Source of the DNA: Thermodesulfobacteriota bacterium | GTDB lineage: Bacteria > Desulfobacterota > Desulfarculia > Desulfarculales > Desulfarculaceae | Length of the DNA: 51,326 nucleotides | Direction of reading: 5' to 3' | NCBI GenBank assembly: GCA_040751985.1 | Contig: JBFMFU010000009.1 | Span: 1-51,326, forward strand | Shown here: positions 1 through 22,758 of the stretch, in pieces | Numbering within the stretch: the stretch's first letter is position 1 | Layout of the letters: each line of letters starts with the position of its first letter | The notes under the pieces: model-generated | The model's input: only the letters and a program-made list of their open reading frames with translations | Database searches by the model: none | Told to the model about the DNA's origin: nothing | Program-made: the position numbers and the translations under genes

Positions 1-1068
1 CCTCTCCCGTTGCTCACGTTCCCTGCACTGTCTTTGTCTGCGGGCGGCCTCTGCCCGGACCTCTCTGTCTCTCCTCTCCTGCTCTTTGCGCTCCGCCTCG
101 GCCTGTTCTCTCTCTTTTTGTCTTTTCTGCTCAACCTCCAGAACCTGCACAAGCGCCGCAGACAACTCTCCCGCCGTCTGGTAACGGTCTCCAGCCTCTG
201 CCTGAAGGGCCTTGTCTATCACTTCGTCAAGATCGGACGGTAGCCCCGGCACCAAATCGCCGGGAAGCTTGAAGCGTCCCTGAGGTATCTTGCCCGTCAG
301 CATCTCGTAAAGAACAACCCCCACCGAATATATGTCGCTGGCAGGACCAACATCCCGGGACGCTGACAACTGCTCCGGCGACATGTAGTACGCCGTACCC
401 ATCGAAAGAGCGCTGCTGGTCAGCTTCGACGGCGAAAGCATCTTGGCCAGCCCAAAATCCAACACCTTCACCCGCCAACCAGGATATTCCCCCGTAACCA
501 CCACGTTGTCAGGCTTCAGGTCCCGGTGAATCACCCCCTGCCCGTGCGCGTGCTCCAAGGCCTGCAAAACCTGACCCACAACACCAACCGCCTCCCACAG
601 AGAGAAAAGCTTGCCCGCCGCTCTGCGCTCCTCCAAAAGCGCCCGCAGGGATCGGCCAGAAACGTACTCCATCGTGAAAAAGCTGCGGCCTGCTTCTTGG
701 TTCAGGTCATAAACTTTTACTATGTTGGGATGGGTGAGAGCCCGGGCAGCCAAGACTTCCTGGGCAAACCGCTCCTGGGCTTCTGGCAGGGCCACCAGCT
801 CCGGCGATATCAGCTTCAGCGCCACCTCCTGGCCCTTGAGCAGCCGGTCACGCACCAGCAACACCTGCCCCATGCCCCCCCGGCCAAGCTCGCGCACCAC
901 CTCGAAACGGCCCGCTATCACCTCCCCATCGCCCAGGTCCGACAAAGGCGCGAATCCGCCATCATGCACTACAGTCTTGCCAAACAACGGGCCCGATAGC
1001 TCCAACCCGCAAAACCCGCAACGATCCGCACCCTCAGGATTAACTTTTCCGCATTGTGAACAGCGCAT
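1..1068 (-). CDS. Ser/Thr protein kinase with N-terminal zinc ribbon (partial, C-terminus runs off window start)
   Basis: Minus-strand start ATG at 1068 translates MRCSQCGKVNPEGADRCGFCG, then a Hanks kinase N-lobe (GRGGMGQV..., VALK). Nucleotide sequence 240-1068 is near-identical to 7660-8521, the kinase at 6746-8521. Beyond the kinase domain the frame continues as a charged coiled-coil-like tail (EQKRQKEREQAEAERKEQERR). Not in the ORF track because it has no stop inside the window. Confidence 0.8.
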   Translation of the reverse strand, partial: MRCSQCGKVNPEGADRCGFCGLELSGPLFGKTVVHDGGFAPLSDLGDGEVIAGRFEVVRELGRGGMGQVLLVRDRLLKGQEVALKLISPELVALPEAQERFAQEVLAARALTHPNIVKVYDLNQEAGRSFFTMEYVSGRSLRALLEERRAAGKLFSLWEAVGVVGQVLQALEHAHGQGVIHRDLKPDNVVVTGEYPGWRVKVLDFGLAKMLSPSKLTSSALSMGTAYYMSPEQLSASRDVGPASDIYSVGVVLYEMLTGKIPQGRFKLPGDLVPGLPSDLDEVIDKALQAEAGDRYQTAGELSAALVQVLEVEQKRQKEREQAEAERKEQERRDREVRAEAARRQRQCREREQRER

Positions 1069-1071
1069 GGC

Positions 1072-2100
1072 TCAGGGTAGAAACTCCTCCACCGACTCCA
1101 CGTCGATGCCGAGGCTTGCGGCCTCTTCCCGGTTGGCTTTGATAAATGCCTGGAGACGTTCCCGGGCATGGGGATGCGTGGTTTCTTTTTCTGGCCCCAG
1201 GGTCTTGTCCACCCAGGCAAGTAGTATCCAGAAGAAAATAGAACCGCCCACAAGATAGTCGGAGAAAGGGCTGGTTGCTATCACCGAAGCGGCAAAAGAG
1301 TCGGCCTCCCGTTCCTGGTTGCGGCTCACCTTGAAGTTGCCGGCGCGGCCCAGGGTGTGCCCCAAGACTATGTGCCCCAACTCGTGGCCCACGACGTTCA
1401 TCAGGATCGCGGCGGCGTAGGAGCGAGCCAGGCAAAGTATTTCCTCGTCGCCAAGACTCGCTGTCAACCCGGTTTCCGCCAAAATGCCCTTTGCGGCCTC
1501 TTTGGTCAGATTTCCCGCCCCGGAGACAATCCTGACGCCCAGGCCCTGCACGGTTTGAATAAGCGTGCCCCGGGCGGCAAATGATTTATGCCTCCGGTCG
1601 GCCCCCAGGCCCAGAGCCATAAGCCGGGCAGTCCGGGTCATGCCGCCGTGCACAACCAGGTATGGGGGCTCTATGCTTAGTTCTGGGATTGTCTGATCCG
1701 TAGCAAAGGCGTTGACCTTGTCGTCCGCGCTGGCGTAGATCAAAGTCGTCTCGCCCGCGCGCGTTCGATAAAGGTGATTTCCCTGCACATGAGGGGAATG
1801 AAAAACAAACTGGGCCATCTGCATGACCTCAGGGGCTGATACTTCCAGGCCGTTCCAAGCCTCCCCTTCCAGGGAGACCCTCTCATCCATGTTCCCAGGA
1901 TCAAGGCTGGCTGACGGCGTCGCCAGAGTCCCCATCGGCCAAGCGTGCCCTGGGTGCGCAGCCTGGCGCTCCAATCCCTGTCGCTGTCCGGCATCTTTGT
2001 GATGTGCGTCCCCGTCAAGTAACGGTGTGGTGGAGGCGTTACAATGCGGGCATGACTCCGCCATCACCGATACTTCGGCTCCGCAGGACTTACACCTCAT
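1072..2100 (-). CDS. zinc-ribbon fused ImmA/IrrE-family (M78-like) HExxH metallopeptidase
   Basis: N-terminal CKSCG...CPHC ribbon. C-terminal VVGHELGHIVLGH plus NQEREADSFAASVI matches the ImmA/IrrE HEXXH...EREANxFAAxLL signature. No predicted TM segments. Start overlaps the stop of the upstream kinase gene. Confidence 0.7.
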   Translation of the reverse strand: MRCKSCGAEVSVMAESCPHCNASTTPLLDGDAHHKDAGQRQGLERQAAHPGHAWPMGTLATPSASLDPGNMDERVSLEGEAWNGLEVSAPEVMQMAQFVFHSPHVQGNHLYRTRAGETTLIYASADDKVNAFATDQTIPELSIEPPYLVVHGGMTRTARLMALGLGADRRHKSFAARGTLIQTVQGLGVRIVSGAGNLTKEAAKGILAETGLTASLGDEEILCLARSYAAAILMNVVGHELGHIVLGHTLGRAGNFKVSRNQEREADSFAASVIATSPFSDYLVGGSIFFWILLAWVDKTLGPEKETTHPHARERLQAFIKANREEAASLGIDVESVEEFLP

Positions 2101-3262
2101 TGAGAACCTCGGTTTGGTTGGCCACGGCCGCGGTATCTTGTATTTGGCTTGTCAGCGCCACCGCCAGGTCTTTGGCGCAAGGCCAGCGGTCCTCTGGACG
2201 GCGGGCCAGGCAGCGCTCCACGGTGTCGTGCACAGCGGGCGGCACCTCCGGGTTTAGTTGGTCCAAACGGAGGTAATCGTCGGCGGGGTAGCGCCCCCCG
2301 CTAAGCACGAAGTAGCAGGTGACACCGAGTGAGTAAATGTCGCTGGCGGGACCCACATTCTTGGCGCTGGCTAGCTGCTCCGGGGAGCAGAACTCCGGGG
2401 TGCCCATGCGGGTTAGGTCGCTGGTAAGCCCTGGCCGTCCAATATCTTTGGCTAGGCCGAAATCCGCCAAGCGCGGTACCAGCTCGCCTGTAACGTAGGT
2501 CAACAGAACGTTAGAGGGCTTGACATCGCGGTGGATTATGCCCTGCTCGTGCGCCGCCTGCAGACCCAGGGCCGTGCCGCAAAGCAGATGCAAGGCTTGG
2601 TGCACATCCACCGGCTGGCTACGGGTAAAGGCCTCAAGGTCACCGCCCGGCAGGTATTCCATGACGATAAAGCAGCGATCCTCATCGGCACCGTGATCCA
2701 GCACCTTGACGATGTTGGGATGGTCTAGCGACTTGAGAATTCGGTATTCCCGCTCGAAGCGCTGGCGGACCTTATGGCTTGACAGGAAACGTTCGTCCAG
2801 GAGCTTGATGGCCACCAACTCCCCATTTTCTTTACGCCTGGCCTTGAACACCCTCCCCATGCCGCCTTCGGCGATGAGGCCCATTATCTCATAGACATCC
2901 TCCAGGGCGGGGCGGCGGCCCTCTGCCTGGTCGTGTACATGCTTGAGTTCGGCCAGCAGGTGCCGCCAGGCTTCCTGATCCAGTTCCCTTGGTTTCCGTC
3001 CTGCGCCTGGCGCCTTGCCTAGCCGCGCGCGGAGGCGTAGAGCGTTCAAGGCCCGCAGCAGCAACGCCGCCGTCTCCAGGTCCTTTTCAGCCGAGTAGGC
3101 AGCCTCCAGGCGGGCCGCCAGTTGCAGATCATCCTCCTCTGCCCGGCCGGCTAGACTGGCTAGGTGGCCGGCTGCTATTTGGCGCGCGGAGGTGTCGGTG
3201 CTTCGCTCAAGCACCTTCAACAGGCTTTGGGGGGACAGGTTCTGCTTTGCCATACCCCGCAC
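2090..3262 (-). CDS. Ser/Thr protein kinase (Hanks type) with N-terminal helical regulatory region
   Basis: Catalytic motifs HRDVKPSNVLL, DFGLAK, GTPEFCSPEQ; glycine loop GGMGRVFKA; VAIK lysine. Confidence 0.85.
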   Translation of the reverse strand: MRGMAKQNLSPQSLLKVLERSTDTSARQIAAGHLASLAGRAEEDDLQLAARLEAAYSAEKDLETAALLLRALNALRLRARLGKAPGAGRKPRELDQEAWRHLLAELKHVHDQAEGRRPALEDVYEIMGLIAEGGMGRVFKARRKENGELVAIKLLDERFLSSHKVRQRFEREYRILKSLDHPNIVKVLDHGADEDRCFIVMEYLPGGDLEAFTRSQPVDVHQALHLLCGTALGLQAAHEQGIIHRDVKPSNVLLTYVTGELVPRLADFGLAKDIGRPGLTSDLTRMGTPEFCSPEQLASAKNVGPASDIYSLGVTCYFVLSGGRYPADDYLRLDQLNPEVPPAVHDTVERCLARRPEDRWPCAKDLAVALTSQIQDTAAVANQTEVLNEV

Positions 3263-3313
3263 TTAAGCTCACTCCACCTGGCATGAACGAATCAGACAGG
3301 CTGGCTCTTATGG

Positions 3314-5335
3314 TTACCGCACCCCCTGGCCGCAGGAGTTGCAGAAGCTGGCGCCGGGGCTCAGAGGCAGGCCACAGCTTGGGCAGTTACTGGCAACGCC
3401 GCTTTGAACGTGGAGCAGCGGCGTGCCAGGGGGCGGGTACACCACCTGGGGCCCCTGGCGGGAGCTACGCAAGGCCTCCAAGGCGACCTCCTTGAAGTCC
3501 TGCCGTGTCTGCTGCTGCTCCCGGCGATAACCCTCGGTGACAAGTTCGCGTTCTTTGAGCATGCGTTCGTACAGATTCTTTATTTCCTCGGCGCCAAGCC
3601 CCTTGAACCGCTCCTGGAAGGCCTTGGCTACCTCGGGCGAATGCTTGGCCGCCTCGGCCAGGATCTGCTCCTCGCTCCAACTGCCCAGAACCTCAGTCCT
3701 CTTCAACTCGGCAAGCATGGCCGCTTGTTGCGGTCCGGCAATCGAGATTAGTGCTTCGACGGATGCCTCGGAAAGGGCTCTTATGCGTTCCAACTCCAAC
3801 TGCTGTTCATGGGCCCTCTCTTTGAGGCGCAGGGTCAGATCCCTCTCCTTTTGCTCGGCCTCCAACAGCATCTGCTCTCTTGCGAACCTCAGCTTGCTGG
3901 CCCGCATTTTGTCCAAGATGGCCAGACCAAACTCAGTCTTGGCTTGCTGGATGCGCAGCTTGATGGCTGCCTTCTCTTCCTCATTGCGGGCCTCGGCCAA
4001 ATCCCGTTCCAGACGATTTTGCTGGTCCTTAAACTGCTCCTCCCTCAGGGCGGCCTTGCGTTCCCTCTCCAGGGCAAGCTCGCGTTCAAAACGTATGCGC
4101 TCAGTATCCAGCTTGGCCTTGAGCAGGTCCTGCTCCAGAGAGGCCTCGCCCATTAACTCCAGCCGGCGAATCTCCAGGTGCTGCTCAAGGGCAAGCTTGG
4201 CCAGCAGATGCCTGCGGGCCAATTCGTGGTCTTCCTTCTGCTCACCGAAGGAGCGGGTTAGCTCGTCCATCTCCTCTTTGCGCAGCAGCCGGTCCTTGTC
4301 CACCTCCATTAGAAAGGCCGCCAAGGCCTCTTCGCTGCGGACCTCGTCCATCTTGTCGGAGTTGACCACCTTGCGCATGCGGGAGAATACGTCCACCCGC
4401 TTTTCGGCGGTCCCCAGCTTTGTGGTGGCCTCGTAGATTTCCTGCAGTTCTTCTTGGTTGAGAACCTCAAAAAGCTTTCTGCGGCCAGTCAGCTTGCTTT
4501 CTTTCTCCCAAACTTGCAGCAGGAGGTCCTCCTCCACTCCCTGTAAGGCGTCATACCTACTGTGGCTCATGCTTAACGTCCGGAACTGCACCAGCTCCAT
4601 TCCGTAGAGCTTCAGGCTCTGTGAGAGGTGCCTCTCGGCCTCAACCGCCAGGCGCTCCTTGACCTTGAGCTCGGAGGAAATCTCCTTGGCGGTCATGGCG
4701 CCGACCGAGTCGCGGAGGGCGTCGCGCACCTCGTTTCGCAGGAGGTCGGTCAACTCGTCAATGCCCAGGGAGGTGCGCCCCTTGAAGAGGTTCAGGTAAA
4801 ACACCTCGGGATGCTGGACCCGGAAAGCCAACTCGGTTTCCAGCTTGACGAAAAGGGGGTCGGAGGTTTTGAGCCCTCCCACGCCCAGGCGCACCGGGGC
4901 GATGCCCGCATCCACCAGCACGACCTTCACGGAGCGGCCCTTGCCGAAAAACGCCTTCACACGGTCGCCCATCGTTTCCAAGGTATGGCGGCCAGGGGCC
5001 AGGCGGTCGATGAGCTTGCCGTTCACAAAGAGCAGGGCCTCGGTTCCTTGCTCCACGGCCAGGCCCTTCTTCAGTGCCGACTCGATGTCGTACCCCTCCA
5101 GCAAGGTGGCGAAGTCCTCCGCGGTCCGGCGCCAGGCCTCTTGCACGACCACCGGCCCTCGCTCACCCGGCAGCCGCCCGCCGCAGCTCATGCAGAACCG
5201 GTCCGCGCTGCCCACCGGCCTGCCGCAGGAGGGGCACTGCCCGCCGCCACCGGAAATCGGCAGGCCGCATTCGGAGCAGAAGTTGCTGCCCCGCGCGTTC
5301 TTTTTCCCGCAACGTGTGCACCGTTCCTGAGACAT
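3314..5335 (-). CDS. zinc-ribbon / SPFH (band-7, flotillin-like) / long coiled-coil / C-terminal zinc-ribbon protein
   Basis: N-terminal CTRCG..CSECG..CPSCG..CMSCG ribbons. Central SPFH-like block (LLFVNGKLIDRLAPGRHTLE...VKLETELAFRV). About 300 aa of E/K/R/L heptad-rich coiled coil. C-terminal CPSCG...CNSCG ribbon. Confidence 0.65.
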   Translation of the reverse strand: MSQERCTRCGKKNARGSNFCSECGLPISGGGGQCPSCGRPVGSADRFCMSCGGRLPGERGPVVVQEAWRRTAEDFATLLEGYDIESALKKGLAVEQGTEALLFVNGKLIDRLAPGRHTLETMGDRVKAFFGKGRSVKVVLVDAGIAPVRLGVGGLKTSDPLFVKLETELAFRVQHPEVFYLNLFKGRTSLGIDELTDLLRNEVRDALRDSVGAMTAKEISSELKVKERLAVEAERHLSQSLKLYGMELVQFRTLSMSHSRYDALQGVEEDLLLQVWEKESKLTGRRKLFEVLNQEELQEIYEATTKLGTAEKRVDVFSRMRKVVNSDKMDEVRSEEALAAFLMEVDKDRLLRKEEMDELTRSFGEQKEDHELARRHLLAKLALEQHLEIRRLELMGEASLEQDLLKAKLDTERIRFERELALERERKAALREEQFKDQQNRLERDLAEARNEEEKAAIKLRIQQAKTEFGLAILDKMRASKLRFAREQMLLEAEQKERDLTLRLKERAHEQQLELERIRALSEASVEALISIAGPQQAAMLAELKRTEVLGSWSEEQILAEAAKHSPEVAKAFQERFKGLGAEEIKNLYERMLKERELVTEGYRREQQQTRQDFKEVALEALRSSRQGPQVVYPPPGTPLLHVQSGVASNCPSCGLPLSPGASFCNSCGQGVR

Positions 5336-5357
5336 CGCGCCCCTCCTCCCCGGATTA

Positions 5358-6323
5358 CTAACTTCGAGATGCCAGCCGGTTGTTCAGATCGGCCAGCCTC
5401 TCGTTGATATGACCGAGAACGTTCATGGTCCCCCTCTGGGAGCCGCCGCCGGCCTCGCGGCGCAGGCGCTCGGTCAGATGCTTCAGGTCTCCCAGCTCAT
5501 GGTCAAAGGCCTTGTCGAACCGCGCCAACCCCTTGAGGTCGCCCTTGTCCGCCGAGCCATAGCGGGCGGCCTGCAGCATGTTTCGCAGGGCGTCCATGTC
5601 CATGCGGGCCTTGCGCAATGCCAGCGCCACCTCGCTGAATTCCTCGCCAGCGAATTTTCCCTCCGCCTGCTTTATATCGCCCGAGGCGCCATCCAAAAGG
5701 GACAGGAGTCTCCCCCGCTGCTCCACCCCCGTCCCCTCCATTTTATGAATCTTGCGGCGGGAACGGGCCCTCAAGCGCCAGGCTGCCAAAAGGATGGCAG
5801 CCAGCGCTGCCGCCGCCAGTATAGCCTGGTTTTTATAGGGCCATACGGCCAGGCCGGTATAACTTTTGGCAAGCACCACCTTGCCTGTTTGCACCGAGAT
5901 AAGGCTTATGTGGGCGGCGGCCTCCACCTGCAGGATGCCGGTGTGCTGCCGGAACCCGTCTGCGAACAGAATAGCCTGCACGCCTCTGATCTGGCCGAAT
6001 TTCACACGATCCCGGCGGTTTATGAGATCGCTGACCTGAAGCCCCTGCTCTTTGACGATCTGCTGCAGACGCTTTCGCTCCACCAATACGAACCGGGGAT
6101 CGGCCTGCACCGCCGCGCTCAGGGCGTTGAACAACACCCCCCTGTCGTCCTTGATATCGGCAATGGCGATCCGGGTCACCCCGCTCAGACCAGGCAGGGA
6201 GCGGACGGCTTCTTTGGCTAGCTGGGCCGCGGCCCGGTCCAGCAGGTCGCCGGCCTGGGCGGGGACGGCTGCCAGCAAAAGCGCCGCGACAAGCAGGATC
6301 AAGGCAAACAGACCCTTTTTCAT
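5358..6323 (-). CDS. membrane-anchored protein: signal/TM, periplasmic CsgG/LpoB-like domain, second TM, cytoplasmic coiled-coil tail
   Basis: ORF 5358-6368. Likely start is MKKGLFALILLVAALLLAAVPAQA at 6323, preceded by GGAGAG. Second hydrophobic stretch is ILAAAALAAILLAAW. Domain assignment is weak. Confidence 0.5.
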   Translation of the reverse strand: MKKGLFALILLVAALLLAAVPAQAGDLLDRAAAQLAKEAVRSLPGLSGVTRIAIADIKDDRGVLFNALSAAVQADPRFVLVERKRLQQIVKEQGLQVSDLINRRDRVKFGQIRGVQAILFADGFRQHTGILQVEAAAHISLISVQTGKVVLAKSYTGLAVWPYKNQAILAAAALAAILLAAWRLRARSRRKIHKMEGTGVEQRGRLLSLLDGASGDIKQAEGKFAGEEFSEVALALRKARMDMDALRNMLQAARYGSADKGDLKGLARFDKAFDHELGDLKHLTERLRREAGGGSQRGTMNVLGHINERLADLNNRLASRS

Positions 6324-6745
6324 TCCTAGCCTCTCCAGCTTGGGGTTCATCATATCATCGGCCGCCAACAGGTTTTAGGAATTCCTTGTTTTTGCGGTAT
6401 CAGGCGGGTTATGTCTTTTTCCTAACGATCTGCGCCGCCTATCGCCAACTCCCTCGGGGGATGAGTATTTATAATCGTTCTAACTCAATGATGTCCTCGC
6501 TATTCTGCTGGGTCACTAGACGAGCAAGCAAAGCAATTTTATGCCCTGATTATAATGATGCGTTCGCGCTTCTTAAGACCATGGCCCCGCCCGCTTTTTC
6601 GACTGGAAGGCGCTAAACCCGGAAAACTTCTGAACGCGTCCGACAAAAACGAGCACCAGGTTTTGTAGGGATTTTGTAGCGACCAGGGGGCTACGCCCCC
6701 TGGACCCCAGGAAAAAGCCAAAGCCAGGGGTAAAGGGGTAAAGGG

Positions 6746-8521
6746 TCAAGGGGTAAGAATCCTGGCGACACGAAAGCCTACGTCGAAGTCGCGGCTCGTA
6801 GGGTCGCTCCTGAAGCGGTTCGCTGAGCGCAGGCTCCTGGGATTGTGGCGCCAGGACCCGCCGCGGATCACCCGGCCGCTCCCGGACGACGGCCCCTGGG
6901 GATCGCGGGTAGGGGAGGCACTATAGGAACCGTACCAGTCGCTCACCCACTCCCACACATTCCCGTGCATGTCGTACAACCCCCAGGCGTTCGGCTCCTT
7001 TTCACCCACGGGATGGGTGCGACCTCCCGAATTGTCATCGTACCAGCCATACTCCCCAAGCGCAGACTCGCTGTCCCCAAAACTGTACCGGGTGCTGCTG
7101 CCCGCTCGGCACGCGTACTCCCACTCCCCCTCCGTAGGCAACCGGTAGGTGCCCGCCTTCAGCCCCTCCTCCTTATTCAACCTGCGGGTAAACTCAACCG
7201 CTTCCTCCCAACTCACACCCTCAACGGGGAAACCCTCATCACCCTTAAAAAAACTCGGATTGCTCCCCATCACCGCCTTCCACTGACCCTGCGTCACCTC
7301 AGTAACACCAAGATAAAATGGCTTGGTTATTTCCACTCGGTGCTGAGGTCGCTCACCCTCGTAACCATCCTCATCGCTCTCGGGACTCCCCATCATAAAA
7401 CTACCAGCAGGGATAAGCGCAAACTCCATCCCCACGCTGTTGGTAAAATGCTCCTGGCCAGATGCCGGCCCATTGCCAAGAGCACCCTCACTCGGTGCTG
7501 CCTCCCCTCCGGCCAACCCCCCTTCCTCAGCTACCCTGTGCCCAGGCTCCAAAACACGCCCCAGCGCCTCCACCAGCTCTCCCGCCGTCTGGTAACGATC
7601 ACCTGCCTCCGCCTGAAGGGCCTTGTCAATCACCTCGTCAATTTCAGGGGGAAGACCTGGCATAACCTCGCCGGGAAGCCTGAAACGACCCTGAGGTACC
7701 TTACCCGTCAGCAGCTCATAGAGAACCACTCCCACCGAGTATATGTCGCTGGCAGGGCCAACATCCCGCGACGCTGACAACTGCTCCGGAGACATGTAGT
7801 ACGCCGTACCCATCGAAAGAGCGCTGCTGGTCAGCTTCGACGGCGAAAGCATCTTGGCCAGCCCAAAATCCAACACCTTCACCCGCCAACCAGGATATTC
7901 CCCCGTCACCACCACGTTGTCTGGCTTCAGGTCCCGGTGAATCACCCCCTGCCCGTGCGCGTGCCCGAGCGCATCAAGCACCGGCAACAGTAACGATAGC
8001 GCTTCCTCAAACTTGAATACCTGATCAGCACCTCTGCGCTCCTCCAAAAGCTCCCGCAGGGACCGGCCAGAAACGTACTCCATCGTGAAAAAACGCCGGC
8101 CCTCAAACTCGTGAGAGTCGTGTACCTTCACTATGTTGGGATGGCTCAGCAACCGGGCAGCCAATACCTCCTGCGCGAAACGGTCCTGGGCCTCAGGCAG
8201 GGCCACCAGCTCCGGGGAGATCAACTTCAGGGCCACCTCTTGGCCCTTGAGCAGCCGGTCACGCACCAGCAACACCTGCCCCATGCCCCCCCGGCCAAGC
8301 TCGCGCACCACCTCGAAACGGCCCGCTATCACCTCCCCATCGCCCAGGTCCGACAAAGGCGCGAATCCGCCATCATGCACTACAGTCTTGCCGGACAACG
8401 GGCCCGTCTTGCCGGACAACGGGCCCGTCTTGCCGGACAACGGGCCCGATAGCTCCAACCCGCAAAACCCGCAACGATACGCACCCTCAGGATTTACTTT
8501 TCCGCATTGTGAACAGCGCAT
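6746..8521 (-). CDS. zinc-ribbon / Ser/Thr protein kinase / FGE-sulfatase (SUMF1-like) domain fusion protein
   Basis: MRCSQCG..CGFCG ribbon. Kinase motifs HRDLKPDN, DFGLAK, SPEQ. C-terminal formylglycine-generating-enzyme-like domain (WEWVSDWY, GGSWRHNPRSLRSANR). Contains a 3x GPLSGKT repeat. Confidence 0.85.
   Translation of the reverse strand: MRCSQCGKVNPEGAYRCGFCGLELSGPLSGKTGPLSGKTGPLSGKTVVHDGGFAPLSDLGDGEVIAGRFEVVRELGRGGMGQVLLVRDRLLKGQEVALKLISPELVALPEAQDRFAQEVLAARLLSHPNIVKVHDSHEFEGRRFFTMEYVSGRSLRELLEERRGADQVFKFEEALSLLLPVLDALGHAHGQGVIHRDLKPDNVVVTGEYPGWRVKVLDFGLAKMLSPSKLTSSALSMGTAYYMSPEQLSASRDVGPASDIYSVGVVLYELLTGKVPQGRFRLPGEVMPGLPPEIDEVIDKALQAEAGDRYQTAGELVEALGRVLEPGHRVAEEGGLAGGEAAPSEGALGNGPASGQEHFTNSVGMEFALIPAGSFMMGSPESDEDGYEGERPQHRVEITKPFYLGVTEVTQGQWKAVMGSNPSFFKGDEGFPVEGVSWEEAVEFTRRLNKEEGLKAGTYRLPTEGEWEYACRAGSSTRYSFGDSESALGEYGWYDDNSGGRTHPVGEKEPNAWGLYDMHGNVWEWVSDWYGSYSASPTRDPQGPSSGSGRVIRGGSWRHNPRSLRSANRFRSDPTSRDFDVGFRVARILTP
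8390..8452. repeat. in-frame 21-bp tandem repeat (2 perfect + 1 variant unit) encoding GPLSGKT x3 in the kinase-FGE gene
   Basis: gccggacaacgggcccgtctt repeated head-to-tail. The paralogous kinase at 1-1068 has a single unit at the equivalent position. Confidence 0.9.
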
Positions 8522-8808
8522 AGTTAGCCTTTACTAATAAATATGATCCATTGTTCCAATTAATTGACGAATAGGTCCGCAGGCATTATGCACAACTTTT
8601 GTGCATCCTGTCCAGAACAGACCCGAGGTTAGCATTCCAGATGCTCCCTCAAGGGGGCTGTTTTGTTTGATGTTGAAAAGCAGGCGGTTGCAGTGCGCAA
8701 ATCATTGGATCGAGGTTGTAATAAATATGTTAATATTTGGCCGTACATGGATTCATTCAAAGAGGTTTCTTTGTCAGCATAAAATGCGTTAATTGACCCG
8801 GGCAGCAC

Positions 8809-9738
8809 GTGATGGGCGATAAAGGCGCGCATCAGGATCTCATCCGCAGGCACCTAGACCTGCTTCAGCGGCTTGGCTGGTGGAGGGATGCCGAGCGTTT
8901 CTTGAGACATGAGGCCGCAGGCGTGTTAAGCGATGCAGAGATTCAGTCCAGGCTGCGTCTGGTTCATGAGAAATTAGAAATCTACGGGGGCTCTGGTGGT
9001 ACAGATGACGCTGGCGAGTCTTATATAGGGGAGGACGATGTAGTTTGTTTGAAGAAAGGTGGCATCTCGATCTCCTACCACCTGAAGGATCGCGACCTGC
9101 CAATTGAGCAGATTTATCGCTCCGTGCTGCGCACGGTTTCGACCCTGCGGGAGAAGCTGAGATACGACATTCCCAGGGTGGACATAGCCCTCCACGGGCC
9201 GCTTTCCGAAATACGGGTGGAACGTCCAAGGGCGCTATTGCCGCCACGTTCCTGGGTGGACGGCGCCTATGACGGCACCATCAGGATCAAGGCCGGGGGC
9301 GCATACGGGACGGAGCCGCAGCGCATAGAGGTTTTGGTGGCACACGAGTTGGTCCATCAGGCCCTGAAAGACATAAGCAGGGGAGGTTGCCCGCGCTGGC
9401 TGCACGAAGGCCTGGCCTTGTTGCTCTCTCAAGGACTCAACCGGGAATACAGCGATGTTTTGGCAGCGGCCAGACGCGAAGGCGGGCTGGTGCCACCGCC
9501 GGCTTTGGAGGGAGACGAGCTTTTCGACAGCTCGCACGAAACCGCTCGCCTGGCCTACGCCCAATCTTTTAGCATGGTCAAATGGCTGCAGGGCAAGCTG
9601 GGGTGGGATGGCTTGCGGAGTCTGGCCGAACGCAGCGGCCGCATGTCCCTCGAGCGGGCCCTGCACGATAACAGCTTGAACTATTTCCTGCTGGAGCGGG
9701 AGTGGCGAAGATGGATGAACGCATCCGATCAGATGTGA
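8809..9738 (+). CDS. putative MA-clan (gluzincin-like) zinc metallopeptidase
   Basis: HELVHQALKD followed about 18 aa later by WLHEGLA (HExxH + E). Divergent from the kinase-FGE gene across an AT-rich 287-bp promoter region. Confidence 0.55.
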   Translation: MMGDKGAHQDLIRRHLDLLQRLGWWRDAERFLRHEAAGVLSDAEIQSRLRLVHEKLEIYGGSGGTDDAGESYIGEDDVVCLKKGGISISYHLKDRDLPIEQIYRSVLRTVSTLREKLRYDIPRVDIALHGPLSEIRVERPRALLPPRSWVDGAYDGTIRIKAGGAYGTEPQRIEVLVAHELVHQALKDISRGGCPRWLHEGLALLLSQGLNREYSDVLAAARREGGLVPPPALEGDELFDSSHETARLAYAQSFSMVKWLQGKLGWDGLRSLAERSGRMSLERALHDNSLNYFLLEREWRRWMNASDQM

Positions 9739-11339
9739 TCACGCCTGACCAGCAGGACAAGGGAGACGCCGCCTCGGGCGATACGGACTTCAAGGTGCTT
9801 ACTCAGGCTGAAAGTCCTGGGGATGTGGAGCCAGATTCTCCGGAAGGCGATCCGGCCCGAGACGTTCCTTTCTGCCCGCATTGTCAGGGCGAACTCGAGG
9901 ACAGCGGTCACATCTGTCCCTCTTGCGATGCCTACCTGGGCCTCTGTTTGAGAGTGTTGGACAAGGTGCATGAGTTGGGCAGGTCTCATACTCTAGAGAT
10001 GGAGGTTCAGAATCGTTCTGCTAAGCTCTTGCACATCTCAGAAATGAGAGTGAGTTGCGACGGTTTTCGCGAAAAGGAAAGCGGGGTCCGCCCTCCTGGG
10101 AAACTACAACCAGGAGGCAAGAGGAAGGCCGAGGTACCCGTCGTCCCCGTTGACGGAGATGAGCTTTTAGCGAGATTTCAATTGGCAATCCGTGACGATA
10201 GCGGTCAGGCCGTGGCTGAAGGCGCGAGAAAGATTTTTGTAAGAAACGTTAGTTCCGAAAAAAAGGTGCGGATTGAAGTAGGGGGGGACCTTTCCGGGGC
10301 CGATCTAGGGGGTCTCATCAATTCTTGTCAGGAAGAAGGCGGCAATCAAGAGGTAGAGATCAAGATAGTTGGTGATGCCCGGGGAGTGGACATAAATCCA
10401 CTTGTTTTTGCTCCACGCAAAAACGTATCCCCCCCTCAGAAAAGACATCCGGAGTGGCTCAAACTCGATCATTGGATTGAAGTGCCCTTATATATCTATC
10501 AAGAGTTTCTTCAGTTGGATAAAGGGAAATCCACCCCAACTCAGTTAGAATGTCCTTCAGAACTCAAGAACCTATCTGATATAAAATCAGCTTGGTTGCG
10601 ACCACTCCAGCCCGAAAAAAACAGAAAGGTGTTTCGCCTATTTTTCAAACCAAAAATTTGCATGGGGCGGGGCGACCATCAGGATATACCATGCAAGGTA
10701 TTTAACCGAGCAGGTAATGTCCTAAAGAAACAGACCCAGTCAATCAGTTCAGAGCATCTGACCCTTTGGGCAGATAGCTTTCAAACAATACTCGAGGACC
10801 ACAGCACCAACGGCACTCTTGTAGGTGAAAAACGTGTCCAGGGGGAACGATGCGGTCTTTCTGCGGGCGATATGATTAGCCTTGCCGGTGTGCTAGCTTT
10901 CCGTTACCGCGAGTTTCGTGATTTATCTGAACTTTATTCCACACTCTATAAGAAGAATATTAAAACTACCTTGCAGCGCGCTAGTCATTTGCGGTTGTCT
11001 TTGGAAGGGCGCAAGTTCTTAGAATACCCCCTTTGTGCAATTCGTCTTAAACCGGTGGGCATCGGCAGAGATGTTTTTGAGTATTTCATCGTGCCTCGGC
11101 AACTCGATATAGGTAGCGGACATCAAAATGCCTTGAAAATAGACCATCCCAGCGTTTCCAATATGCACGCGCGACTCTTAGTGAGCGATCAAGGGGTGCG
11201 GTTGTTGGATCTCGAGTCTGATCATGGAACGTTTATCAATGGGCGTCGGCTTAATAATAACGAGGCCTGTCTACTTTCTGCCGGGTGTTTGATTCGTTTT
11301 GGAGAATTGGAAGTTGAGTTGGATTGTGATAGCTGTTAA
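9702..11339 (+). CDS. zinc-ribbon protein with two FHA (phosphothreonine-binding) domains
   Basis: CPHCQG...CPSCD ribbon. Two FHA signatures: GRGDHQDI...SSEHLTL...DHSTNGTLV and GSGHQNALKIDHPSVSNMHARL...SDHGTFINGRR. Start overlaps the 3' end of the peptidase gene. The 10.0-11.3 kb stretch is visibly lower in GC. Confidence 0.75.
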   Translation: MAKMDERIRSDVITPDQQDKGDAASGDTDFKVLTQAESPGDVEPDSPEGDPARDVPFCPHCQGELEDSGHICPSCDAYLGLCLRVLDKVHELGRSHTLEMEVQNRSAKLLHISEMRVSCDGFREKESGVRPPGKLQPGGKRKAEVPVVPVDGDELLARFQLAIRDDSGQAVAEGARKIFVRNVSSEKKVRIEVGGDLSGADLGGLINSCQEEGGNQEVEIKIVGDARGVDINPLVFAPRKNVSPPQKRHPEWLKLDHWIEVPLYIYQEFLQLDKGKSTPTQLECPSELKNLSDIKSAWLRPLQPEKNRKVFRLFFKPKICMGRGDHQDIPCKVFNRAGNVLKKQTQSISSEHLTLWADSFQTILEDHSTNGTLVGEKRVQGERCGLSAGDMISLAGVLAFRYREFRDLSELYSTLYKKNIKTTLQRASHLRLSLEGRKFLEYPLCAIRLKPVGIGRDVFEYFIVPRQLDIGSGHQNALKIDHPSVSNMHARLLVSDQGVRLLDLESDHGTFINGRRLNNNEACLLSAGCLIRFGELEVELDCDSC

Positions 11340-11496: not shown

Positions 11497-11997
11497 TTAA
11501 CCATCCCAAACCAAATCCCTGCTTGTCCTCGCCTTTCCCCGCCTCGCCCAGCGAAACAGGGGTGGATTATCACGGTGAGGTGCGTCTTTCACCAGGCGAT
11601 AGCGAAATCTGCCTGCCTCCCGGATATACCCACGTCTACGCATCTCCCGCAGCCATTCGAGCGCACCCCTGCGATGCACTCCAGATACCAGGATTAAGTC
11701 TGCTGACGAGAACGCCCCCCGCAGAGTTAGCTGATGCGCTGCCCGCCAAAGGGTCCTATAAGCTTCCCTCTTGCGCTTGTCCGGCTTTTCTATCAGCCGG
11801 CAATGGCAATCAGGCAGCAAGAGAGCCTCCCCGCGCGCAACCAGATACTCCAGGGCCTGGTTTACCTGGCAGAGAGTGTGCCCGGCCCCGTCCACCAGAC
11901 ACGCATACAAATCCCCGACCGAGGCCACGCCGCCCGCCTCCTTCAACAAGGTCCTGATCATCACCGGCCTGCGTTGGCAGGCGATCCTGCCGGCCAT
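11497..11997 (-). CDS. hypothetical protein with two winged-helix-like segments, translationally coupled to the MuB-like gene
   Basis: ORF 11497-12075. An internal ATG at 11997 overlaps the stop of the upstream AAA+ gene. No recognisable catalytic motif. Confidence 0.4.
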   Translation of the reverse strand: MAGRIACQRRPVMIRTLLKEAGGVASVGDLYACLVDGAGHTLCQVNQALEYLVARGEALLLPDCHCRLIEKPDKRKREAYRTLWRAAHQLTLRGAFSSADLILVSGVHRRGALEWLREMRRRGYIREAGRFRYRLVKDAPHRDNPPLFRWARRGKARTSRDLVWDG

Positions 11998-12776
11998 CAC
12001 TTCACCATTTTGAGATTGGTCCCAGCCGCCCTCAGCCTGCTGCGAGATATCTCGGTTGTCACCTTGCGGGCCCATTCCAGACTTACCTTGGGGGAGCCCT
12101 CTGTCTTGGCCAAGACTTCCAGCCGGGCCAGGTGCACAATGGTCTGGCGGAGGTTGCCGTGGGTGGCCCGGCGGATATGCTCGGCAGACTGATCATCCAG
12201 GGTCAGCCCAGCCAACTCCGTCGCCAAGCTGACCACCTCCTTTATGCCCAGCGGGGTAAACTCTTCGCTCATGCGGACCCGGTCCCAGAATTGGGGAAAG
12301 CGGCTCAGGGCCTTGGCCAGGCCGTTCATGCCCACCAGCAGTACTGGAGCGCCAGAGGAGTCGTGCAGATCACGCACCGTGTCCAACAGGGGAGGCGTAT
12401 GAGGGGGCTGAGTGCCCTTGGCCAGGTAGTCGGCCTCATCTATGATCAGCAGCCCATTGCCCAGAGAAGACACGCCCAACCGCTCTGCCAAGGCCTCAGC
12501 CGCCCGGGCGAGGTTGTCGGCCGCACTGACCGTGGCCAGGCATCCCAGCCCTGCCAAGATGGCCTTGAGCATGGAGTTGGGAGTCCATACACGGGCCGCG
12601 GAGACGTACACGGCGCCGGTTCTGGCGGCCAAGTTGTCCACGGCTCGGGTCTTGCCTCGGCCAGCCGGACCATAGATCAGGCCCAGGCGGGGCTCTCCCA
12701 TGGAGGCATTGGTTATGGACTCCACCACCTCCCAAAGCCGGGCCACGTTTCTGGTCTGGACAAACTTGGCCTTCAT
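11997..12776 (-). CDS. MuB-like AAA+ ATPase (transposition target-DNA activator)
   Basis: Walker A GPAGRGKT, Walker B LLIIDEADYL. Start ATG at 12776 overlaps the stop of the transposase (ATGA coupling). Confidence 0.75.
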   Translation of the reverse strand: MKAKFVQTRNVARLWEVVESITNASMGEPRLGLIYGPAGRGKTRAVDNLAARTGAVYVSAARVWTPNSMLKAILAGLGCLATVSAADNLARAAEALAERLGVSSLGNGLLIIDEADYLAKGTQPPHTPPLLDTVRDLHDSSGAPVLLVGMNGLAKALSRFPQFWDRVRMSEEFTPLGIKEVVSLATELAGLTLDDQSAEHIRRATHGNLRQTIVHLARLEVLAKTEGSPKVSLEWARKVTTEISRSRLRAAGTNLKMVK

Positions 12777-14848
12777 GGGTCTGGGTCCTCCTCCCCATAG
12801 ACCACGCAATTGCGCAGGCCCAGGGCAAACTCCTCGAATTGCCGCCCACCCAGTTGCTCCCACATGGAGGTCTTTTGGAATTTCTCCAGGAAGGCCAAGT
12901 CTTCTTGGGAGTTGCTTAGGCCCTCCCGCTTCCTGACCAGTATCCACACTGCCCGCTCGGAAGGCTTCATGAAGATCGGGCGATGGTGAATATCGATTTC
13001 CTGACCCCAGGGGTCCAAAACTTTCTCACTGCCGTTCTCAAAGGATTCCGCTTCCCTTCTCTCGGCCTGGCCCAACATCTCCCGCCTGGCCTCGGCCGCC
13101 GCTCGCAGGGCCGGCAGGTCCAGGTTGGGGGGCGGCAAGGCCTCCAGGGGTTTGGTCTTGGCGGCCACCTCGTCCAGCCTGGCCCGTTCCAAATCGTCCA
13201 AGTCCAGGGCCTTGACCCGCTCAAGGGAGGCCTTGCGCTCCAGGCACCGGATGGACCACCAGCGCTTCTTGCGCTCCCTAATCTGTTTGGGCGTGAGATT
13301 CAGGCGATCCAGGTCTGTGGCTATGCAGATGAATGCACCACTCTGGTCGAATACGTAGAGAATGCCGGCGTCTTCGGGATCAGGCCGCACCCAAACCCGA
13401 CCCGAGGGCTCCAGGTATAAAAGCTCCTCGGCCGTGTAAAGCCCTCGGTTGTAATGAATGCGGCCTTGGGCCACGCTGCGCGGCTCGGCCGGCTTCAACA
13501 GCAGAAAGAGTTGATCCAGTGGGGCCACCCTTGGTCTCCATCCCTCATCAATGGCCTTCTCCCAGCGCTCCCGGGGAGTACAGCCGATGGTGGAGACTAC
13601 GTGGTTGCTCTCAAAGTCAAGCACCCACTTGTCCACCATCTCCTGCAACTCAGTCAGTGTGTATCTGGTCTCAATGACCTCCGGCCGCTTGGCCAGGCTG
13701 TTGCCCGTATACCCGGTCAAGGTGCGCAGCAGATCAGAGATCAAGTGGAAGACGATCTCCGCATGAGGCTTGAGCTCAGGGCTGTAGCCCGGTATCTGCG
13801 GGGCCTTGATGCCCAGGTCCATGAACAGGGCCTGCACCTGTTTGCTCTGGTAGTCCTTGCCCAGGTCCACGACGACTTCACGGGGTATGCCCATTTGCTT
13901 GAAGGCCTTGAAAAGGGTCTGGGCAATGGGGTCTCCTCCGCCCCTCTCCCACACCCCGAACACCGGCCGCCGGGTCCACACGTCTACCACTCCGATCAGG
14001 GTGCAGCGCCGGCCGTCTGCGGTCATAATGTCCGCCCGGGTGGAGTCCGCCTCCCAGCGCTGGTTGGGCTCGGTGAGGCCGGCGTCCGCTCTTCCCAGAG
14101 AGGGCTGATACCGTCGTTTGAAAAGAGAAGGGTGGTGCAATAACGCCAGGCGGGCCTGCTTGTCTTTGCTGATGCGGGGCACCAAGTTTCGGACCGTGCC
14201 CTGGGCTGGCAGCCTGCGGCCCTTGAATTTGTGGAGTATCAGCTTGTGTATTTTGGCGGCGGTGATCCCCGGCCGGCCCAGCAGGCAGGTCTCGATGAAT
14301 TCCTTGATGTCCTCCCCTATGGCATTACTGCGGTGCCTGCCCCGCCGGTCGACCAGGCCGACCACTCCCCTTTCTTGCAAGACCTTGCGCCAGCGGTAAA
14401 GGCTTCTCTTAGAAAGAGGGCCTAGTTTGACGCTGAGGCTTTCATCAACCAGGCCGCGGTTGAAGTCATCCAGCCAGCGCTTGAAATGCTCCTGCCGCTG
14501 GCCGTGCGGAGCCGGGCTCAGTTCCTTGGCCGCCTCGGCCAGCCTGACCGCCTTGGCCTTGGCCAGGGCCCGCTCCAGGGCGGGCCCTGGGACCCTGTGC
14601 AGCTCAGAGGCGCTTCCCCCTGACTCGCAGAGAAAGGGCACCAGGTCGCACAGGGTGAGTTTCTGGAGGCGGTGCTGCAGAAGCCGCTGCTGGACGTCCA
14701 CTGGCAGGGAAGGGACCTCGTAGTGCTTGACCTTGCCGCCCCGGCCGGGAAGCAGGTGCAGGCGCCAGCCCTTGGACTTCTTCTCAATGGACTGCCGGGA
14801 GACGCCCAGGGCCTGGGCCAGTTGGCTGTTGGTGACAAGTTGGTTCAT
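12773..14848 (-). CDS. MuA-like DDE transposase (rve integrase core) with N-terminal HTH
   Basis: N-terminal LAQALGVSRQSIEKK HTH; DDE core region WEADSTRADIMTADG...VVDLGKDYQS...; about 690 aa like MuA. Follows the ner homolog. Confidence 0.8.
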   Translation of the reverse strand: MNQLVTNSQLAQALGVSRQSIEKKSKGWRLHLLPGRGGKVKHYEVPSLPVDVQQRLLQHRLQKLTLCDLVPFLCESGGSASELHRVPGPALERALAKAKAVRLAEAAKELSPAPHGQRQEHFKRWLDDFNRGLVDESLSVKLGPLSKRSLYRWRKVLQERGVVGLVDRRGRHRSNAIGEDIKEFIETCLLGRPGITAAKIHKLILHKFKGRRLPAQGTVRNLVPRISKDKQARLALLHHPSLFKRRYQPSLGRADAGLTEPNQRWEADSTRADIMTADGRRCTLIGVVDVWTRRPVFGVWERGGGDPIAQTLFKAFKQMGIPREVVVDLGKDYQSKQVQALFMDLGIKAPQIPGYSPELKPHAEIVFHLISDLLRTLTGYTGNSLAKRPEVIETRYTLTELQEMVDKWVLDFESNHVVSTIGCTPRERWEKAIDEGWRPRVAPLDQLFLLLKPAEPRSVAQGRIHYNRGLYTAEELLYLEPSGRVWVRPDPEDAGILYVFDQSGAFICIATDLDRLNLTPKQIRERKKRWWSIRCLERKASLERVKALDLDDLERARLDEVAAKTKPLEALPPPNLDLPALRAAAEARREMLGQAERREAESFENGSEKVLDPWGQEIDIHHRPIFMKPSERAVWILVRKREGLSNSQEDLAFLEKFQKTSMWEQLGGRQFEEFALGLRNCVVYGEEDPDP

Positions 14849-14850
14849 CT

Positions 14851-15186
14851 TCAGGTGTACTCTCCGCTTTTCCCATTGCGGTTGGCAGGGCTAATGTGGT
14901 TTTTTAAATCAGAGGTGACGGGCTTTGGAGAGCGGCTCTTCGGTCGGTTGGATTTGCCCTGCTGGTCGTAGCGCTCCGGCCAGAGTTCTGCGGGGTGCAT
15001 ATCCAGCGCCGCCTCGATCACAGCCTCCATCCGGGGGTAGGGCTTGCGCAGGGCCAGGCCCACCGCGTGCCGGCTAACTCCGCGTTCCCGGCCCAGACTG
15101 GTCAAGGTGTGGCCACGGCGGCGGAGTTGGTATTTGATCCACAGGGGATCTATGGGGGAAGGGTTTTCTTTGGCTAAATTCTCCAT
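14851..15186 (-). CDS. ner: Ner/Nlp-family DNA-binding regulator (Mu Ner homolog)
   Basis: Aligns with Mu Ner: LRRRGHTLTSLGRERGVSRHAVGLAL...AALDMHPAELWPERY vs Mu LKKRGLSLAALSRQFGYAPTTLANAL...NALETKPEVIWPSRY. Confidence 0.8.
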   Translation of the reverse strand: MENLAKENPSPIDPLWIKYQLRRRGHTLTSLGRERGVSRHAVGLALRKPYPRMEAVIEAALDMHPAELWPERYDQQGKSNRPKSRSPKPVTSDLKNHISPANRNGKSGEYT

Positions 15187-15921: not shown

Positions 15922-15952
15922 ACTTTTCCCTCAATAAATAGCGCCCCCAATT

Positions 15953-16066
15953 TTGGTTGCAGGTTAGCTGTTGCAGTTTGTCAAAGAAAACTGCCACAAG
16001 CTGTTAATATATTTAGATTTTACTTGGTTGCAGGTTCGGTTGCAGGTTAGCAGACAGTTTGACAAT
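15953..16066. repeat. cluster of direct repeats (GGTTGCAGGTTAGC/GGTTGCAGGTTCGG and CAGTTTGNCAA) in AT-rich non-coding DNA downstream of the repressor gene
   Basis: R1 15953-15986 TTGGTTGCAGGTTAGCTGTTGCAGTTTGTCAAAG. R2 16024-16066 TTGGTTGCAGGTTCGGTTGCAGGTTAGCAGACAGTTTGACAAT. Confidence 0.6.
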
Positions 16067-16509: not shown

Positions 16510-16586
<77 letters not shown>

Positions 16587-16748
16587 ATGTTTTCGTTGGG
16601 GTTATCTACCACAGCCCTGATCGCTTGTCCACAGGACAGACAGGGCCCCAGGCGGCCCGGCCGGGAAAAAAGTGCCGCTATCCCTTGGCCGGGGATGCGC
16701 TATAATGGCCTAAAGAATGTCTCCCGATTCACGCTCAAGGAGTTAGCC

Positions 16749-18846: not shown

Positions 18847-18854
18847 GACGACCT

Positions 18855-21669: not shown

Positions 21670-21670
21670 G

Positions 21671-22738: not shown

Positions 22739-22758
22739 GGACTGCTACCTCGTTTTGG

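Follow-up and report, generated by a model that had tools for sequence, protein, structure and literature searches.

We analysed a 51,326-bp window, corresponding to an entire contig of a Thermodesulfobacteriota metagenome-assembled genome (MAG), in which positions 1-11339 are occupied by a cluster of genes for Ser/Thr kinases, peptidases, an SPFH protein, a membrane protein and an FHA protein, several of them carrying zinc ribbons (ZnRs). An earlier note, made from the sequence, had described eight consecutive genes in this interval as a coherent module. Indeed, open reading frame (ORF) calls and Pfam searches confirmed eight consecutive ORFs filling it, here named g0 to g7. Judged from sequence and gene order, the cluster is a real, conserved and apparently undescribed system of known parts. 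The eight genes are the following:

1-1068, minus strand: g0, ZnR, protein kinase domain (Pkinase, E 1e-46) and a charged tail of coiled coil, truncated at the C-terminus where the contig stops
1072-2100, minus strand: g1, ZnR, linker and HExxH gluzincin metallopeptidase domain, Lit/M48-like
2090-3262, minus strand: g2, Pkinase domain (E 2e-45) with a helical N-terminal extension of ~110 amino acids (aa), no ZnR
3314-5335, minus strand: g3, two N-terminal ZnRs, Band_7/SPFH domain, a coiled coil of ~380 aa and a third ZnR at the C-terminus
5358-6368, minus strand: g4, CsgG-like domain (25.2 bits, cut-off 20.8), signal or transmembrane (TM) segment and a second TM segment
6746-8521, minus strand: g5, ZnR, (GPLSGKT)x3 linker, Pkinase domain (E 2e-43) and FGE-sulfatase domain (E 9e-53)
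8809-9738, plus strand: g6, Peptidase_MA_2 domain (HELVH; 40.9 bits, cut-off 32.4), overlapping the start of g7
9702-11339, plus strand: g7, ZnR and two FHA stretches (E 4e-25)

The NCBI labels of these genes are generic only, and NCBIfam names no protein of the cluster. PADLOC v2 gave no match for g3, g4, g6, and g7; its kinase matches (PD-T4-6, mad6, MkoA, and PglW) are confined to the kinase domain, and g1 matched Lit (3e-8), U41, and CapP weakly. In full-text literature searches, this gene combination was not found described. Furthermore, the current annotation shortens one member and hides the shared ZnR domain: the NCBI call of g1 has 250 aa against the 342 aa of the ORF and drops the conserved N-terminal ZnR. 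Full-length g1 homologues span 100% of the 342-aa ORF. An exact-sequence look-up of the full g1 returned no match, because NCBI calls the shorter protein.

Homologous loci were gathered from g1 homologues, g3 homologues, a genome scan and a motif-restricted metagenome scan (A2 sub-alignment), and 88 loci (L numbers below) were annotated with phmmer and with iterated profiles built from the window proteins. The complete five-gene order, ZnR-2xFHA, CsgG-like, ZnR-SPFH, g2-type kinase and ZnR-peptidase, is found in L033 (a Desulfohalobiaceae MAG) and L048. The order FHA, CsgG-like, ZnR-SPFH and kinase is found in L034 and in a 47-kb JGI contig, the peptidase gene not being detected in either. In L002 and L003 a CsgG-like gene is followed by SPFH and, further on, by kinase and peptidase; L030 presents SPFH, kinase, peptidase and kinase-FGE, and L029 presents ZnR-FGE, ZnR-SPFH and peptidase. 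Looking at single junctions, a g4-type gene lies directly upstream of ZnR-SPFH in L002, L003, L012, L033, L034, L048, and the JGI contig. A g2-type orthologue sits between SPFH and peptidase in L002, L003, L030, L033, L035, and L048; in L034 it immediately follows SPFH.

The surroundings of the peptidase gene are recurrent as well. A kinase gene, often FGE-fused, comes after it in L030, L031, L046, L006, and L008, and kinase-FGE or FGE genes flank it in L004, L007, L010, L029, L030, L046, L059, and L071. SPFH, FGE or kinase genes adjoin it also in L035 and L046; variants occur in L012 (a Nitrospira MAG) and L007 (a Brocadiaceae MAG), and in L006 and L008-L010 (Verrucomicrobiota, Kiritimatiellia, and rumen contigs) the peptidase is paired with kinase-FGE genes. 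Overall, Planctomycetota, Verrucomicrobiota, Kiritimatiellia, and Nitrospirota all provide cases in which the peptidase adjoins an SPFH, kinase or FGE gene. Of the 15 peptidase loci whose flanks are long enough on either side, 13 have one of these genes adjacent, a fraction to be read as rough. The weaker genome-scan loci (L013-L028 except L012) have mostly no partner genes among the matches listed. Because synteny spans several phyla, we consider the cluster conserved and not a product of chance, in line with the coherence claimed for it; its homologues keep the same gene order instead of being scattered. The five core families are ZnR-Ig-2xFHA, CsgG/LpoB-like TM protein, ZnR-SPFH, g2-type kinase, and ZnR-Lit/M48 peptidase, and around them are variable extra sensor kinases with FGE, Sel1, TPR, or Ank fusions. 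In the window, the kinase-FGE gene g5 holds the usual place of the FHA gene, upstream of g4.

The most evident feature shared by proteins of the cluster is the ZnR. All seven ZnRs have the CX2CX10CX2C spacing, and the best Pfam match of each isolated segment is Zn_Ribbon_1, DZR, or Zn_ribbon_3; they are thus of one sequence type, with the same Pfam families, and not unrelated to each other. A ZnR-type motif is present in five of the eight island genes and in one of the other 31 window genes (Fisher p = 5e-4), the latter having a different spacing. In predicted models, the confidence on the ZnR (predicted local distance difference test, pLDDT) is ~90 in g1 and ~60 in g7. The idea that five unrelated proteins start with the same ribbon stands in part: five proteins carry it, but that of g7 begins ~58 residues in, and g0 and g5 share 79% aa identity over 345 aa, covering ZnR and kinase. 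This similarity marks g0 and g5 as recent paralogues, which therefore count as one ZnR-fusion event and not as independent cases. The further claim that the SPFH protein also ends with a ZnR was confirmed. Among homologous families of the fetched loci, the ZnR is carried by 25/50 U49-like peptidases, 13/16 SPFH proteins (eight also have a C-terminal one) and 4/8 FHA proteins, and it is sporadic on kinases (5/37) and FGE proteins (4/12).

The peptidase g1 was previously taken for an ImmA/IrrE-type enzyme, an assignment that we rejected. The protein has the motifs HELGH, NQEREAD, and THPxxRER, and in Pfam it exceeds the cut-off of M48 (PF01435, 30.8 bits vs 20.3), with a match limited to the C-terminal third of the Pfam model, while it stays below those of U49 (PF10463, 20.5 vs 23.9) and M78 (PF06114, 20.2 vs 22). 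In addition, its neighbours are the kinases g0 and g2 and no helix-turn-helix (HTH) repressor of the Xre/ImmR type is adjacent, as in the homologous loci; the proposed logic of a repressor-cleaving switch falls with the assignment. The only NCBIfam match of g1 is Lit (NF007238), at 26.1 bits against an equivalog cut-off of 274, and a 26-member g1 family profile aligned to Escherichia coli Lit with an hhalign probability of 83% (E 8.8e-6, 87 columns). The signature shared with Lit is HExxHxxLxHxL ... EREAD ... THPxxxER, whose residues are invariant in the g1 family, as are C17 and C20 of the N-terminal ZnR; most g1 homologues carry precomputed PF10463 matches. The fold is M48-like, and BepA, HtpX, and Lit are equally close. 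No hydrophobic segment (mean Kyte-Doolittle >=1.6 over 19 residues) and no signal peptide were found in g1. This evidence classes g1 as a putative Lit/M48-like metallopeptidase, catalytically active-looking. The family is rare and patchy across phyla, with 136 matches among 5.8 billion proteins, and a scan of 2.9 million viral contigs gave just one distant relative, on which ground the candidate of a phage-borne system was discarded.

The HExxH motif is kept in g6 as in g1. The MA-type peptidase indicated as part of the module is thus present, but it is not a conserved partner: the iterated profile recovered g6 relatives as fragments only, in L003. We therefore dropped it as a member of the conserved cluster, and g6 seems to be a local accessory.

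The gene g3 encodes, as previously described, an SPFH/flotillin-like coiled-coil protein. Its Band_7/SPFH match (PF01145) reaches 39.3 bits against a cut-off of 23.6 and is followed by an extended coiled coil (67% E/K/R/Q/L/A at residues 260-640), and its homologues P0124-P0129 have 30-52% identity. The protein presents no hydrophobic segment and no N-terminal membrane anchor, the N-terminus being occupied by two ZnRs, and by these features it is predicted to be a flotillin-like scaffold without TM segments. The earlier note had counted g4 among the eight genes but had left it undescribed; it is a CsgG/LpoB-like protein, with a weak LpoB match beside the above-threshold CsgG one, and the sole membrane protein of the eight (TM segments at residues 13-43 and 181-201). 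By its two hydrophobic segments g4 is a bitopic protein, whose CsgG/LpoB-like domain would be periplasmic and whose helical tail of ~130 aa would be cytoplasmic; it is a candidate envelope sensor.

In g7, a disordered N-terminus is followed by the ZnR (58-75), an Ig-like beta-sandwich, FHA1, a helical REFRDLS linker and FHA2. Proteins of ~500 aa with ZnR, beta-sandwich and two FHA domains form its family, in which the REFRDLS linker is conserved, and the sequence alignment shows conservation over the ZnR, the beta-domain and both FHA domains. This family was recovered by a full HMMER search; in word-indexed searches, made with g7 and also with g3, generic FHA and coiled-coil candidates prevailed. 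The FHA fold is present in g7, and FHA1 has the residues MGR, SSEH, and TNGT, corresponding to the canonical GR/SxxH/NG, while in FHA2 the Arg is lost (IGS), as is the Asn (DHGT), and SNMH is kept. Hence the role of the FHA domains as phosphothreonine readers would hold for one of the two: FHA1 keeps the residues contacting phosphothreonine and is probably the only canonical reader, while FHA2 looks degenerate. The window g7 is highly divergent (at most 33% identity) and has a G+C content at third codon positions (GC3) of 0.49, unlike its neighbours.

The three Hanks kinases, one of them FGE-fused, were also confirmed by Pkinase and FGE matches and by the catalytic motifs: g0, g2, and g5 all keep the VAIK-type Lys, HRDxKxxN, DFG, and SPE. 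The GxGxxG pattern was matched in g0 and g5 and, as searched, not in g2. The three kinases are thus active-looking on their motifs. The ~110-aa N-terminal extension of g2 is conserved in seven aligned relatives from the fetched loci. With its FGE region, a C-type-lectin-like domain, g5 is a candidate ligand-sensing kinase. In its linker between ZnR and kinase, a 21-nt unit that encodes GPLSGKT is repeated exactly, three times in tandem (8385-8447), and the g0 linker has a single copy; the repeat is possibly a length-variable linker. As a separate observation, L029 presents an RVT_1 reverse transcriptase and a Y2 transposase fragment (12308-13684) 1-4 kb downstream of the ZnR-FGE/ZnR-SPFH/peptidase genes. 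Diversification of the FGE sensor by a diversity-generating retroelement (DGR) was considered and rejected, as L029 has no template/variable repeat despite the nearby reverse transcriptase. In the window there is no reverse transcriptase, and a repeat search found no repeats there beyond the g0/g5 duplication.

A second arrangement, which we consider a sister variant, is found in L066, L069, L040, L008, L071, L005, and L007. Both L066 and L040 start with ZnR-SPFH, ZnR-FHA and two unknown genes; L066 continues with an LpoB-like gene, a zinc-finger protein, an M4-like peptidase and then a Lit/M48-like peptidase. Downstream of these is a Snf7-like gene; after it come, in L066, a kinase-Sel1 gene and, in L040, a classical AAA ATPase (AAA + AAA_lid_3). 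L007 has a gene for a ZnR-DUF4384 protein and two for AAA ATPases, of which one matches Vps4_C weakly; classical AAA ATPases with a weak Vps4_C match are present also in L005. The Snf7-like and AAA genes are located as follows:

L040, 9013-11100
L066, 10503-11246
L007, 1951-4838
L005, 5315-9085

The scores for Snf7 (PF03357) are 26.2 bits in L066 and 23.2 bits in L040, below the cut-off of 27.3, and the top four PDB matches of the family profile (A4) are all yeast Snf7, with E-values of 0.02-0.03. Neither Snf7-like nor AAA ATPase genes are present in the window. The core shared with the sister loci ties the class to membrane biology. A Vps4-like ATPase is described as seemingly absent from bacteria in a 2025 review (PMC7619361); the sister loci bear on whether bacteria possess Vps4-assisted ESCRT-III systems.

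In our reading, positions 1-11339 carry, in rearranged form, a surveillance module that is horizontally mobile and associated with the membrane; a protease would be controlled in it by kinase/FHA signalling that takes place on an SPFH scaffold. We regard this reading as about evenly poised between right and wrong. The SPFH protein would oligomerise into a membrane-proximal platform at the CsgG/LpoB-like protein, and the CX2CX10CX2C ZnRs would be docking tags by which peptidase, FHA adaptor and sensor kinases gather on it. The kinases would be activated when the envelope or membrane is perturbed or when FGE binds a ligand; FHA1 of the g7 adaptor would then read their phosphothreonine marks, and this would free the restrained g1 metallopeptidase to cleave its target. 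The output could be protective (repair or quality control) or sacrificial (abortive infection). A theme of membrane integrity is favoured because of the Snf7/AAA sister loci and of the partnerships of SPFH proteins with proteases and with ESCRT-III.

Several points weigh against this reading. The membrane localisation of g3 is an assumption, because the protein lacks an anchor, and 25 of the 50 peptidase homologues in the fetched loci have no ZnR. This type of ZnR is common and may bind membrane, nucleic acid or nothing specific; even for ArnA, an archaeal protein with zinc finger and FHA domain, the function of the zinc finger is unsettled (PMC6509490). The window copy itself is rearranged, with the FHA gene and g6 inverted and divergently transcribed, and its g7 may be a replacement or functionally uncoupled. 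The annotated genes of the cluster include no phosphatase, peptidase homologues without any partner nearby exist (L001 and L032), and many fetched contigs are short, so that the co-occurrence fractions are rough.

Known systems resemble parts of the cluster. Lit, the U49 cell-death peptidase of E. coli prophage e14, is characterised by EF-Tu cleavage triggered by a phage peptide. Its catalytic core signature is common to g1; however, g1 falls far below the family cut-off, its ZnR and family-specific NAFAT subdomain lie outside the match, which covers the catalytic core alone, and Lit is a single gene while g1 belongs to a multi-gene cluster. The M48 enzymes BepA, HtpX, and Ste24 are membrane-embedded or exported and have no ZnR, in contrast to g1, which has a ZnR and neither TM segment nor signal peptide. 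As in the partnerships of SPFH proteins with a protease (HflK/C-FtsH) and with ESCRT-III (Bacillus subtilis YdjI-PspA), an SPFH coiled-coil gene stands together with a zinc metalloprotease gene in the cluster and, in the sister loci, also with genes for a Snf7-like protein and an AAA ATPase. Unlike in those systems, g3 is anchorless and has three ZnRs, the protease is neither FtsH nor NfeD, and Hanks kinases and an FHA adaptor are added. Partnerships of SPFH proteins with proteases and with ESCRT-III (YdjI-PspA) are established, and SPFH cages have been described (PMC11188069, PMC7619361).

The archaeal ESCRT-associated loci (Makarova et al. 2024, PMC11188069) also contain SPFH proteins with coiled coil (CC) and ZnR, membrane-associated kinases, FHA and Ig-like domains, a likeness by domain vocabulary. 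These loci are centred on Vps4 and ESCRT-III, of which the window has neither, and a Lit/M48-like peptidase is not reported there (the word "peptidase" has 0 occurrences in PMC11188069). ArnA of Sulfolobus, with its partner ArnB and the kinases ArnC/D, differs by a single FHA domain, a vWA partner and a role in archaeal motility or DNA damage; the proposal that the ArnA zinc finger binds ArnB was set aside, being not supported by PMC6509490. The Hanks kinase domains score strongly against PD-T4-6, Stk2, MADS mad6, and BREX PglW, but this likeness is limited to the generic kinase domain, and the cluster lacks every partner gene of those systems. In the FGE/FGS conflict systems (Kaur et al. 2020, PMC7159879), a small adaptor on sensor and effector, the effector-associated domain (EAD), resembles the proposed ZnR tag; there the tag is a helical EAD or Death-like domain, while here it is a ZnR and there is no NTPase core. 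Kinase-FGE fusions are known as well, in the bacterial Ser/Thr kinase (bSTK) family Proteo1 (10.1101/2025.01.12.632604). The nearest published parallels are therefore the archaeal ESCRT loci with SPFH-CC-ZnR proteins, Ser/Thr kinases and FHA proteins, the FGS-sensor conflict systems, Proteo1, and ArnA.

A bolder version of our reading, towards which we are more doubtful than inclined and which we would give about one chance in four, is that the cluster stands for a class of bacterial membrane-associated systems, for surveillance or immunity, that has not been described. In this class, the ZnR would serve as a tag of Death-like/EAD type joining sensor kinases, a phosphothreonine adaptor and a Lit/M48-like executioner on a flotillin-like cage, and the sister loci would place a Snf7 ESCRT-III protein and a Vps4-like AAA+ ATPase under Ser/Thr-kinase control. 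If the surveillance logic proposed above is right, Hanks kinase/FHA signalling, SPFH-gated proteases and Lit-type executioner peptidases would be joined in one portable machine, and the very common, functionally obscure N-terminal zinc ribbons would acquire a role as assembly tags. The gene set is small (5-8 genes), and the five core families offer a concrete search signature; even if the system were a lineage-restricted stress regulator, it would be a clear conserved unannotated operon.

The genomic context of the cluster includes a tRNA gene and early genes of a Mu-like element, both of which had been indicated as neighbours and were confirmed:

11997-12947, minus strand: MuB-like AAA gene (Pfam, PHROGs)
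12773-14848, minus strand: MuA-like transposase (Pfam, PHROGs)
14851-15186, minus strand: Ner-like HTH_35 gene (Pfam, PHROGs)
15217-15921, plus strand: cI/S24 repressor (Pfam, PHROGs)
15952-16051, plus strand: three direct copies of TTYGGTTGCAGGTTAGC (3 matches vs 0.14 expected), just outside the repressor gene
16510-16586, minus strand: tRNA-Arg(CCG) (ARAGORN), with the 3' end facing the island

To the right of the tRNA, GC3 per gene is 0.82-0.96; to its left it is 0.68-0.79 in g0-g6, 0.49 in g7 and 0.59-0.79 in the Mu-like genes. Because GC3 breaks there, we consider the left 16.5 kb a foreign mosaic island ending at the tRNA 3' end, and the value of g7 suggests a separate acquisition or a cassette swap. 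This foreign composition, together with the rare and patchy peptidase family, fits an accessory rather than a housekeeping system; of the earlier view of a signalling or conflict system, the accessory character is thus supported, while the PADLOC matches are generic similarity to kinase or HExxH regions. The Mu-like genes lie in Mu order (c repressor, Ner, A, B) and have 24-29% identity to transposable phages (tblastn). The TTYGGTTGCAGGTTAGC copies are candidate transposase-binding or operator sites near an end of the element; no inverted copy of this repeat occurs in the window, and the far Mu-like end was thus not located.

The same evidence has to be confronted with other explanations. Abortive infection against phages or mobile elements is possible, and we put it clearly short of even: sensor kinases (FGE, Sel1, TPR, Ank) would detect the invader, FHA and SPFH proteins would assemble, and the Lit-like peptidase would cleave an essential protein such as EF-Tu. 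Its architecture overlaps with that of the surveillance module, while trigger and outcome are different. What speaks for it is the extended catalytic signature that g1 shares with Lit, with Lit as sole NCBIfam match and a PADLOC Lit match at 3e-8, but the Lit score is 26 against 274 bits and the fold is equally near to the quality-control M48 proteases BepA and HtpX. Paralogous kinase arrays with varied ligand-binding domains flank the core in L004, L007, L046, L081, and the JGI contig, FGE/FGS domains have been proposed as invader sensors in conflict systems (PMC7159879; 10.1101/2023.09.22.558884), and CHAT, caspase, TPR, WD40, and transposase neighbours occur in L002, L003, L005, and L029; nevertheless, known defence genes were not demonstrated in the flanks, PADLOC has no match for g3, g4, g6, and g7 and generic ones (PD-T4-6, mad6) for the kinases, and DGR repeats are missing where a reverse transcriptase is nearby. 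The foreign island beside Mu-like genes and a tRNA and the rare, patchy distribution fit such a system, while the single distant viral relative does not favour it. The periplasmic LpoB/CsgG-like domain of g4 recalls instead a regulator with a housekeeping task in the growth or division of the envelope, specific to a lineage and analogous to the control of cell-wall synthesis by kinase and FHA protein of the PknB/FhaA type. The SPFH protein and the M48-like protease would then see to the routine quality control of membrane proteins, the known task of BepA and HtpX. In its favour are also the SLT lytic transglycosylase genes that follow the cluster in L033 and in the JGI contig, and a penicillin-binding protein gene upstream in L003. 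We judge this unlikely: the family is rare and patchy instead of lineage-conserved, GC3 is strongly unlike that of host core genes, and at every locus the flanking genes differ and the accessory content varies.

The adjacency to the Mu-like genes could also mean that the cluster is moron cargo of a transposable prophage, for instance for superinfection exclusion. It does lie on the transcription-downstream side of the Mu A/B-like genes, where Mu carries accessory early genes, and the whole 16.5 kb is compositionally foreign. We find this very improbable, since late phage genes (lysis, head, tail) are absent from the window, GC3 is heterogeneous inside the island, homologous clusters elsewhere are not beside Mu-like genes, and viral contigs yielded that one distant relative. 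A search for a close relative with which to compare the MuA-like protein yielded none, and the window holds no two defined ends enclosing the cluster, the contig ending inside g0. The Mu-like adjacency is probably incidental and carries little weight. Lastly, in a kinase-rich genome, unrelated signalling genes may come to lie side by side by chance: kinase, FHA and ZnR domains are abundant in Desulfobacterota, in bacteria of the Planctomycetes-Verrucomicrobia-Chlamydiae (PVC) group and in Myxococcota, and the local g0/g5 duplication inflates the apparent coherence. The gene order repeated across phyla, the dedicated kinase and FHA subfamilies and the ZnR enrichment of the island contradict this explanation, which we hold to be hardly credible.

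Some minor observations concern the surroundings of the cluster and its variants. In the near-identical metagenome contigs L002 (3214-8774) and L035 (2350-7979), four Pfam-less genes of ~850, 320, 335, and 330 aa lie between ZnR-SPFH and the core kinase, and they may be further components of some variants. A 192-aa ORF on the minus strand of the window (11497-12075) overlaps the end of the MuB-like gene and has as its sole match a weak one to a PHROG "transcriptional regulator" (E 5e-4); it may be a Mor-like or other early gene, or no gene. Beyond the tRNA, positions 16587-23418 contain universal stress protein, NrfD-like, 4Fe-4S dicluster, CCG-domain, and nitrate-reductase-gamma-like genes, which are host core metabolism of the sulfate-reducer membrane electron transport type, unrelated to the cluster. 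Finally, three promoter-like sites were found near the cluster genes:

6549-6576, minus strand: TTAAGA-16-TATAAT (10/12), upstream of g4, within the 377 bp that separate it from g5
8585-8614, minus strand: TGGACA-18-CATAAT (10/12), upstream of g5, in the divergent intergenic region
8756-8785, plus strand: TTCAAA-18-TAAAAT (9/12), upstream of g6-g7

These are consensus matches only, in a total count not above chance; they are confined to the two intergenic gaps, where they are only suggestive.

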